Positions 38,220-38,499 of a stretch of DNA of 64,000 nt are shown one piece after another (within the stretch, counting starts at the first letter, position 1; the number at the start of each line of letters is the position of its first letter). The stretch is from Escherichia coli (GTDB taxonomy: Bacteria > Pseudomonadota > Gammaproteobacteria > Enterobacterales > Enterobacteriaceae): assembly GCF_003018235.1 (NCBI RefSeq), contig NZ_CP027437.1; one strand, 5' to 3'. Position numbers and translations under genes: made by a program. The notes beneath the pieces are model-generated. The model had not been told where the DNA came from, made no database searches, and saw nothing but the letters and a program-made list of their open reading frames with translations.

Positions 38220-38258
38220 TACCGTTGTCTCTCGTCCAGGTTTACTCCTGATAGAAAG

Positions 38259-38285
38259 TCATCGGCACTTGACGATAATTACTTA
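38259..38285 (-). promoter_or_regulatory. candidate sigma-28 (FliA) promoter for trg
   Basis: On the minus strand TAAGTAAT-N11-GCCGATGA resembles the sigma-28 consensus TAAAGTTT-N11-GCCGATAA, about 40 nt upstream of the trg start. Confidence 0.4.
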
Positions 38286-38499
38286 TGACCAAAAACCTCT
38301 TTGCGTCACATTTTTACAACAATTATTGCAGAGAAAATTAATGCTATTGGAATGAAGAGAGTAACGAATGGCTAAACTGGCTAACCCGAATGACGAAAAA
38401 TTCTGGAAAACAGCACGCAATTTCGTCAGGTGATTATTTTCGTCCCTAAGGAAACCACATAGGATGCTCACGGGTGCCTGAGACTTTCTGTTTTCAGGC

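Follow-up and report, generated by a model that had tools for sequence, protein, structure and literature searches.

The trg promoter of Escherichia coli in a 64,000-nt window: a conserved FliA site flanked by a CRP site

The promoter of aer offers a close described parallel to the one considered here since, like trg, it drives a gene of the chemoreceptor family from a sub-consensus sigma-28 (FliA) promoter (TAAAGATA-N11-GCCGACAT) with a CRP site whose end lies 6 nt upstream of the -35 element, although all element sequences differ between the two. CRP activates aer directly from about -49.5, through a site (AATTGCGATCTAAATCAAATTA) that matches the consensus at 17 of 22 positions compared with 13 of 22 for trg (hand count), and aer transcription begins, by primer extension, at the sixth nucleotide after the -10 octamer as opposed to the seventh for the genome-wide trg start. 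The canonical class 3 promoters of tar, motA, fliC, tsr and flgM share with trg the sigma factor, the 11-nt spacer, a GCCGATAA-type -10 element and membership of the flagellar and chemotaxis regulon, but lie nearer to the consensus, with matrix scores of 15–27 against approximately 14.7 for trg. Direct regulation by CRP was not seen at any other sigma-28-dependent promoter tested by Hollands et al. (PMC2859248); CRP binding was not clear at fliC/fliD, flgMN, flgKL, motA and tar, and at tsr CRP binds far upstream without detectable effect (PMC2859248).

The trg promoter of K-12 has been characterised by several independent approaches. Fitzgerald et al. 2014 (PMC4183435, Table 2) reported a FliA ChIP-seq peak with a score (fold above threshold) of 23, whose motif, TAAGTAATTACCGTCAAGTGCCGATGAC, they assigned to trg, and in the same study trg RNA fell significantly, by 27-fold, from 108 in motile MG1655 wild type to 4 on deletion of fliA. 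In the paper by Hollands et al. 2010 (PMC2859248), expression of a trg100::lacZ fusion required sigma-28 and was activated by CRP, and the trg100 fragment of K-12 was shifted by CRP in a gel-shift assay; a supplementary figure of that paper labels the CRP, -35 and -10 elements on the same stretch. A genome-wide survey by Cho et al. 2014 (PMC3923258, Table S6) placed the trg start at NC_000913.2 position 1490461 (+), a call based on 8 reads in K-12, with sigma-28 among the factors bound. As the K-12 trg ATG lies at 1490494, this gives a 33-nt leader, and the start base, an A 7 nt after the -10 octamer, corresponds to position 38252 of the DNA analysed here. By analogy with aer, a start at the sixth nucleotide would fall at 38253.

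The survey of Cho et al. (PMC3923258) also lists sigma-70 and sigma-38 ChIP-chip binding for the trg start and region ('DSF'), as would be expected if trg were transcribed mainly from a sigma-70 or sigma-38 promoter overlapping or near the FliA-like motif, with the motif itself playing a secondary part. However, the resolution of ChIP-chip is low, the sokB and hokB promoters lie approximately 220–320 bp away, and the sigma-70 and sigma-38 signal may come from these neighbours. A sigma-70 scan of the minus strand between 37900 and 38900 recovered nothing promoter-like, and both the fall in trg RNA on deletion of fliA and the reported sigma-28 dependence of the reporter argue against this explanation, which we consider very improbable.

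We examined a 64,000-nt stretch of an E. coli genome (contig NZ_CP027437.1; hereafter the window) in which trg, encoding a protein with TarH, HAMP and MCPsignal domains, lies on the minus strand behind the features collected in Table 1. The initial annotation, made by reading the sequence alone, had proposed a FliA-like motif on the minus strand within 38220..38300, with the spacing and -10 element of FliA promoters and a short leader to the trg start, as expected of a class III chemotaxis gene. Bases extracted by script bear this out, in that the motif is present, its octamers are 11 nt apart, the -10 octamer agrees with GCCGATAA at seven of eight positions including the CGA core, and the site is the same as the published FliA site of K-12. 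The end of the -10 element lies 39 nt from the trg ATG, the leader is 33 nt long when the K-12 start (PMC3923258) is carried over, and the class III assignment agrees with the sigma-28 requirement of the K-12 fusion (PMC2859248). What the annotation overlooked is the direct activation by CRP from the site at 38313..38292, and the test of FliA dependence that it suggested has essentially already been performed in K-12. The motif is the already well-characterised, CRP-assisted FliA promoter of trg, and as such it is known rather than new; a real, experimentally established promoter was nevertheless located by a reading of raw sequence without tools, and its importance beyond correct annotation is small.

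Table 1. Promoter elements, transcripts and genes in the trg region, in window coordinates
Feature	Position	Strand	Remarks
-35 element TAAGTAAT	38285..38278	minus	4/8 to TAAAGTTT; within published FliA motif
Spacer TATCGTCAAGT, 11 nt	38277..38267	minus	K-12 counterpart is TACCGTCAAGT
-10 element GCCGATGA	38266..38259	minus	7/8 to GCCGATAA, CGA core intact
CRP binding site AAATGTGACGCAAAGAGGTTTT	38313..38292	minus	left half TGTGA perfect, right half poor; sequence as in K-12
CRP half-site TGTGA	38310..38306	minus	
Transcription start (A)	38252	minus	transferred from K-12 start site
5' untranslated leader, 33 nt	38220..38252	minus	from K-12 start site
GAGAGA, Shine-Dalgarno-like	38233..38228	minus	inside trg leader
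trg CDS, ribose/galactose chemoreceptor, 546 aa	36579..38219	minus	ATG at 38219
sokB	~38570..38514	minus	published start maps to 38570 (-)
sokB terminator-like hairpin	38554..38523		
mokB ORF	38560..38727	plus	
hokB	38618..38767	plus	published mRNA start maps to 38472 (+)

Compared with K-12, the CRP site, -35 element, -10 element and leader are identical and occupy the same position before the same gene, the only promoter difference being spacer base 38275, which is T in the window and C in K-12 (minus strand). To judge from this comparison, the window carries the trg promoter of K-12, altered at a single spacer base in what looks like a neutral way. FliA binding, dependence on FliA and CRP, and the start site are all K-12 results; with one spacer base changed, the allele of this strain would be expected to behave in the same way. 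The exact 76-nt window allele was counted in 164 complete E. coli genomes; a further 3553 have K-12-type alleles, 1–3 nt removed from it. Across 11 Escherichia alleles TGTTGTAAAAATGTGA, TTTT, TAAG.AATTA and TGCCGATGA are invariant; the spacer varies, as does the right CRP half-site.

Among 5426 complete E. coli genomes, 5416 contained a match to the region; their RefSeq annotation names the gene trg and places hokB, yncP and ydcA upstream of it. A 301-nt stretch comprising the 5' end of trg and the promoter was found in only 4546 of the 5426; in O127:H6 only the first 64 nt of this stretch match, and one trg allele (AREA_486) is annotated as frameshifted. On these figures trg is absent from, or degraded in, an appreciable minority of strains.

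The strength of the sequence match taken alone depends on how it is scored. A search for TAAAGTTT-N11-GCCGATAA with at most three mismatches did not recover the trg site and returned two unrelated matches; the site is missed because its -35 element agrees with the consensus at only four of eight positions, the -10 element matching at seven. Position weight matrices were built from the FliA motifs in Table 2 of Fitzgerald et al. 2014 (PMC4183435) with trg excluded. The trg site ranked sixth among approximately 128,000 window positions with the matrix of the 51 other published FliA sites, and second with that of the 24 strongest. When the matrices were made neutral to the spacer, three or two window positions, respectively, scored at least as high as the trg site, against 0.96 or 0.28 expected from Markov resamples, and a loose rule (-10 with at most one mismatch, -35 with at most four) was satisfied at 22 window positions. 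The chance of such a match on the correct strand in a given 100 nt is approximately 0.0002 to 0.0007. On sequence grounds, then, the bare match is borderline and only suggestive of a promoter. Resemblance to a FliA site is weak evidence when it stands alone, and the case for trg is made by position, conservation and published data; it is position and conservation that lift the site above chance.

Two other FliA-like sites in the window were noted in the course of these scans. One (CAAATTTCACATCAGTAATGCCGATAAA, 48332..48305 on the minus strand) outscores the trg promoter and lies antisense inside azoR (47819..48424, plus strand), approximately 680 nt upstream of hrpA; its K-12 counterpart, with one spacer base different, is absent from the 52 published FliA ChIP-seq peaks. 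The other (TACGATTAAACGAGATAACGCCGATAAG, 31493..31520, plus strand) is antisense within a 184-aa ORF (31212..31766, minus strand) that is probably rimL, judged by its position.

Conservation was assessed by scanning species-representative genomes with the N-terminal 271 residues of Trg, which gave 80 loci in Escherichia, Citrobacter, Enterobacter, Lelliottia, Kluyvera, Kosakonia, Leclercia, Phytobacter, Trabulsiella, Pluralibacter, Mangrovibacter, Buttiauxella and others (Enterobacteriaceae). The best matrix match within 300 nt upstream took the form TAAn5-N11-GCCGATGnn in 79 of the 80, and the 11-nt spacing between the octamers was likewise the same in 79; control windows from the same loci reached this score level in 8.4% of 1424 cases. 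One locus (L050) was considered as a genuine loss of the motif and rejected as such, there being a scaffold gap ('NN') immediately before trg. The distance from the end of the -10 element to the ATG ranges over 35–52 nt when the ATG is chosen by a Shine-Dalgarno rule, and over 35–76 nt with a cruder choice. In the motif-anchored comparison of 79 distinct orthologous sequences, TAA of the -35 element and GCCGATG of the -10 element are at least 90% conserved. The -35 octamer TAAGTAAT agrees with TAAAGTTT at only half of its positions, yet its TAA is conserved and the K-12 motif bound in ChIP-seq includes exactly this octamer. Spacer columns show 20–69% identity, apart from two at 70–89%, so that the length of the spacer is fixed while its sequence and the flanks of the motif have diverged. 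The 9-mer GCCGATGAC is present in 59 of the 80 sequences, and AAGAGAG before the ATG is also conserved. At position 7 of the -10 octamer, 74 of the 80 sequences, across more than 15 genera, have retained a non-consensus G, a base that just 2 of the other 51 FliA sites of E. coli carry there (motifs of PMC4183435). Fitzgerald et al. 2017 (bioRxiv 10.1101/188474) noted sequence-level conservation of the well-characterised flagellar FliA promoters, and because of this the conservation of the trg promoter is not a new finding.

These data bear directly on the proposal that the motif is a chance match and that trg is expressed from far upstream, either by read-through from sokB or from another start. 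Kim et al. 2012 list a single trg start, at 1489908, 586 nt upstream and based on 4 reads, and comparable matrix scores do occur elsewhere in the window, both of which fit that proposal. Against it, the motif is kept at the same place in 79 of 80 species while neighbouring bases have diverged; the motif is backed by ChIP-seq, RNA-seq and reporter data alike; and a terminator-like hairpin (38554..38523) ends sokB, which tells against read-through. Because of the conservation data we regard a chance match as excluded, with a probability that is very small.

Leaders outside Escherichia are approximately 12 nt longer and contain a conserved GGCGTG..CACGC that is absent from E. coli (L007–L077). 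Small hairpins can be drawn by eye in the leaders of E. coli (CAGG-AGTAAA-CCTG) and of Citrobacter and Enterobacter (GCGTG-TTTT-CACGC). A special structure of the 5' leader was rejected as unsupported, since the 58 distinct leaders that were folded gave a mean z-score of +0.24 relative to shuffles.

The right half of the CRP site agrees with the consensus at none of five positions in E. coli. In the window the site stops 6 nt short of the -35 element, the same gap as in aer, and the centre of the site falls at -49.5 in aer-type numbering versus -50.5 from the start of Cho et al. Counted from the T of the -35 element, TGTGA lies at -25 or -26 in 68 of the 80 sequences: 7, the alleles of Escherichia type, have -25 and the other 61 have -26, so that the CRP-to-promoter distance of Escherichia is 1 bp less than that of other genera. 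The T-tract that follows TGTGA is at least 90% conserved. One could suppose that FliA does recognise the promoter and that the CRP site is non-functional in this strain, control being exerted by FliA and FlgM only, as the non-consensus right half and the overall score of 13 of 22 might suggest. However, CRP binds and activates the K-12 trg100 fragment (PMC2859248), the CRP region of the window is base for base that of K-12, and conservation across genera extends to both TGTGA and the T-tract downstream of it. We consider a non-functional site unlikely, and the CRP site in the window would be expected to act as it does in K-12.

Taken together, these observations indicate that the trg promoter is a class 3 flagellar promoter recognised by FliA and recruited by CRP, with transcription starting at about position 38252, a reading to which we assign a probability of roughly 0.95. 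In the mechanism that we propose, RNA polymerase carrying FliA would recognise TAAGTAAT as the -35 and GCCGATGA as the -10 element, 11 nt apart, and would begin transcription near 38252 to leave a 33-nt leader ahead of the trg ATG. With both elements below consensus, cAMP-CRP bound at 38313..38292 would raise occupancy of the promoter from an unusual, aer-like geometry, and by analogy with aer it may act through contacts with alpha-CTD. Expression of trg would then be gated by the release of FliA from FlgM, on completion of the basal body, and by a catabolite-derepressed state. A FliA promoter with CRP recruitment implies in turn that trg would need both free FliA and catabolite derepression.

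The conserved G of the -10 element, the weak -35 element and the CRP half-site together suggest, speculatively, selection for an activator-dependent promoter. It is possible, if somewhat doubtful, that the trg promoter has been kept sub-optimal by selection that favours dependence on CRP over maximal FliA strength. Conservation of the -10 G was not found stated in the cited trg papers and is only a mildly new point; with the CRP half-site, it makes a small addition to what is known of the coupling of trg to flagellar assembly and carbon status.

Directly upstream of trg lies the hokB/mokB/sokB type I toxin-antitoxin locus (38472..38770). On the opposite strand of the trg promoter, at 38252..38279 (plus), there is a sigma-70-like TAGAAA-16-GATAAT together with a FliA-like TAGAAAGT-N11-GACGATAA. 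This look-alike was considered as a promoter of hokB and rejected, as the published hokB start maps to 38472. It is probably due to chance; the sigma-70 scan gave one such site against 1.5 expected in shuffles. The -10 of the look-alike is improved by the window's spacer T at 38275 (minus strand), K-12 having GGTAAT.

Further differences from other genomes were observed elsewhere in the window. In NZ_OZ547043.1 (L083), a RefSeq genome with 100% identity to the window around trg, an IS200C transposase and four small ORFs lie between hrpA and ydcF, whereas window positions 42644..47618 are without them; the window thus derives from another strain, albeit a close relative. A gapC-type glyceraldehyde-3-phosphate dehydrogenase ORF (39966..40967, plus strand) is intact in the window and encodes 333 aa, while gapC of K-12 is annotated as a pseudogene.
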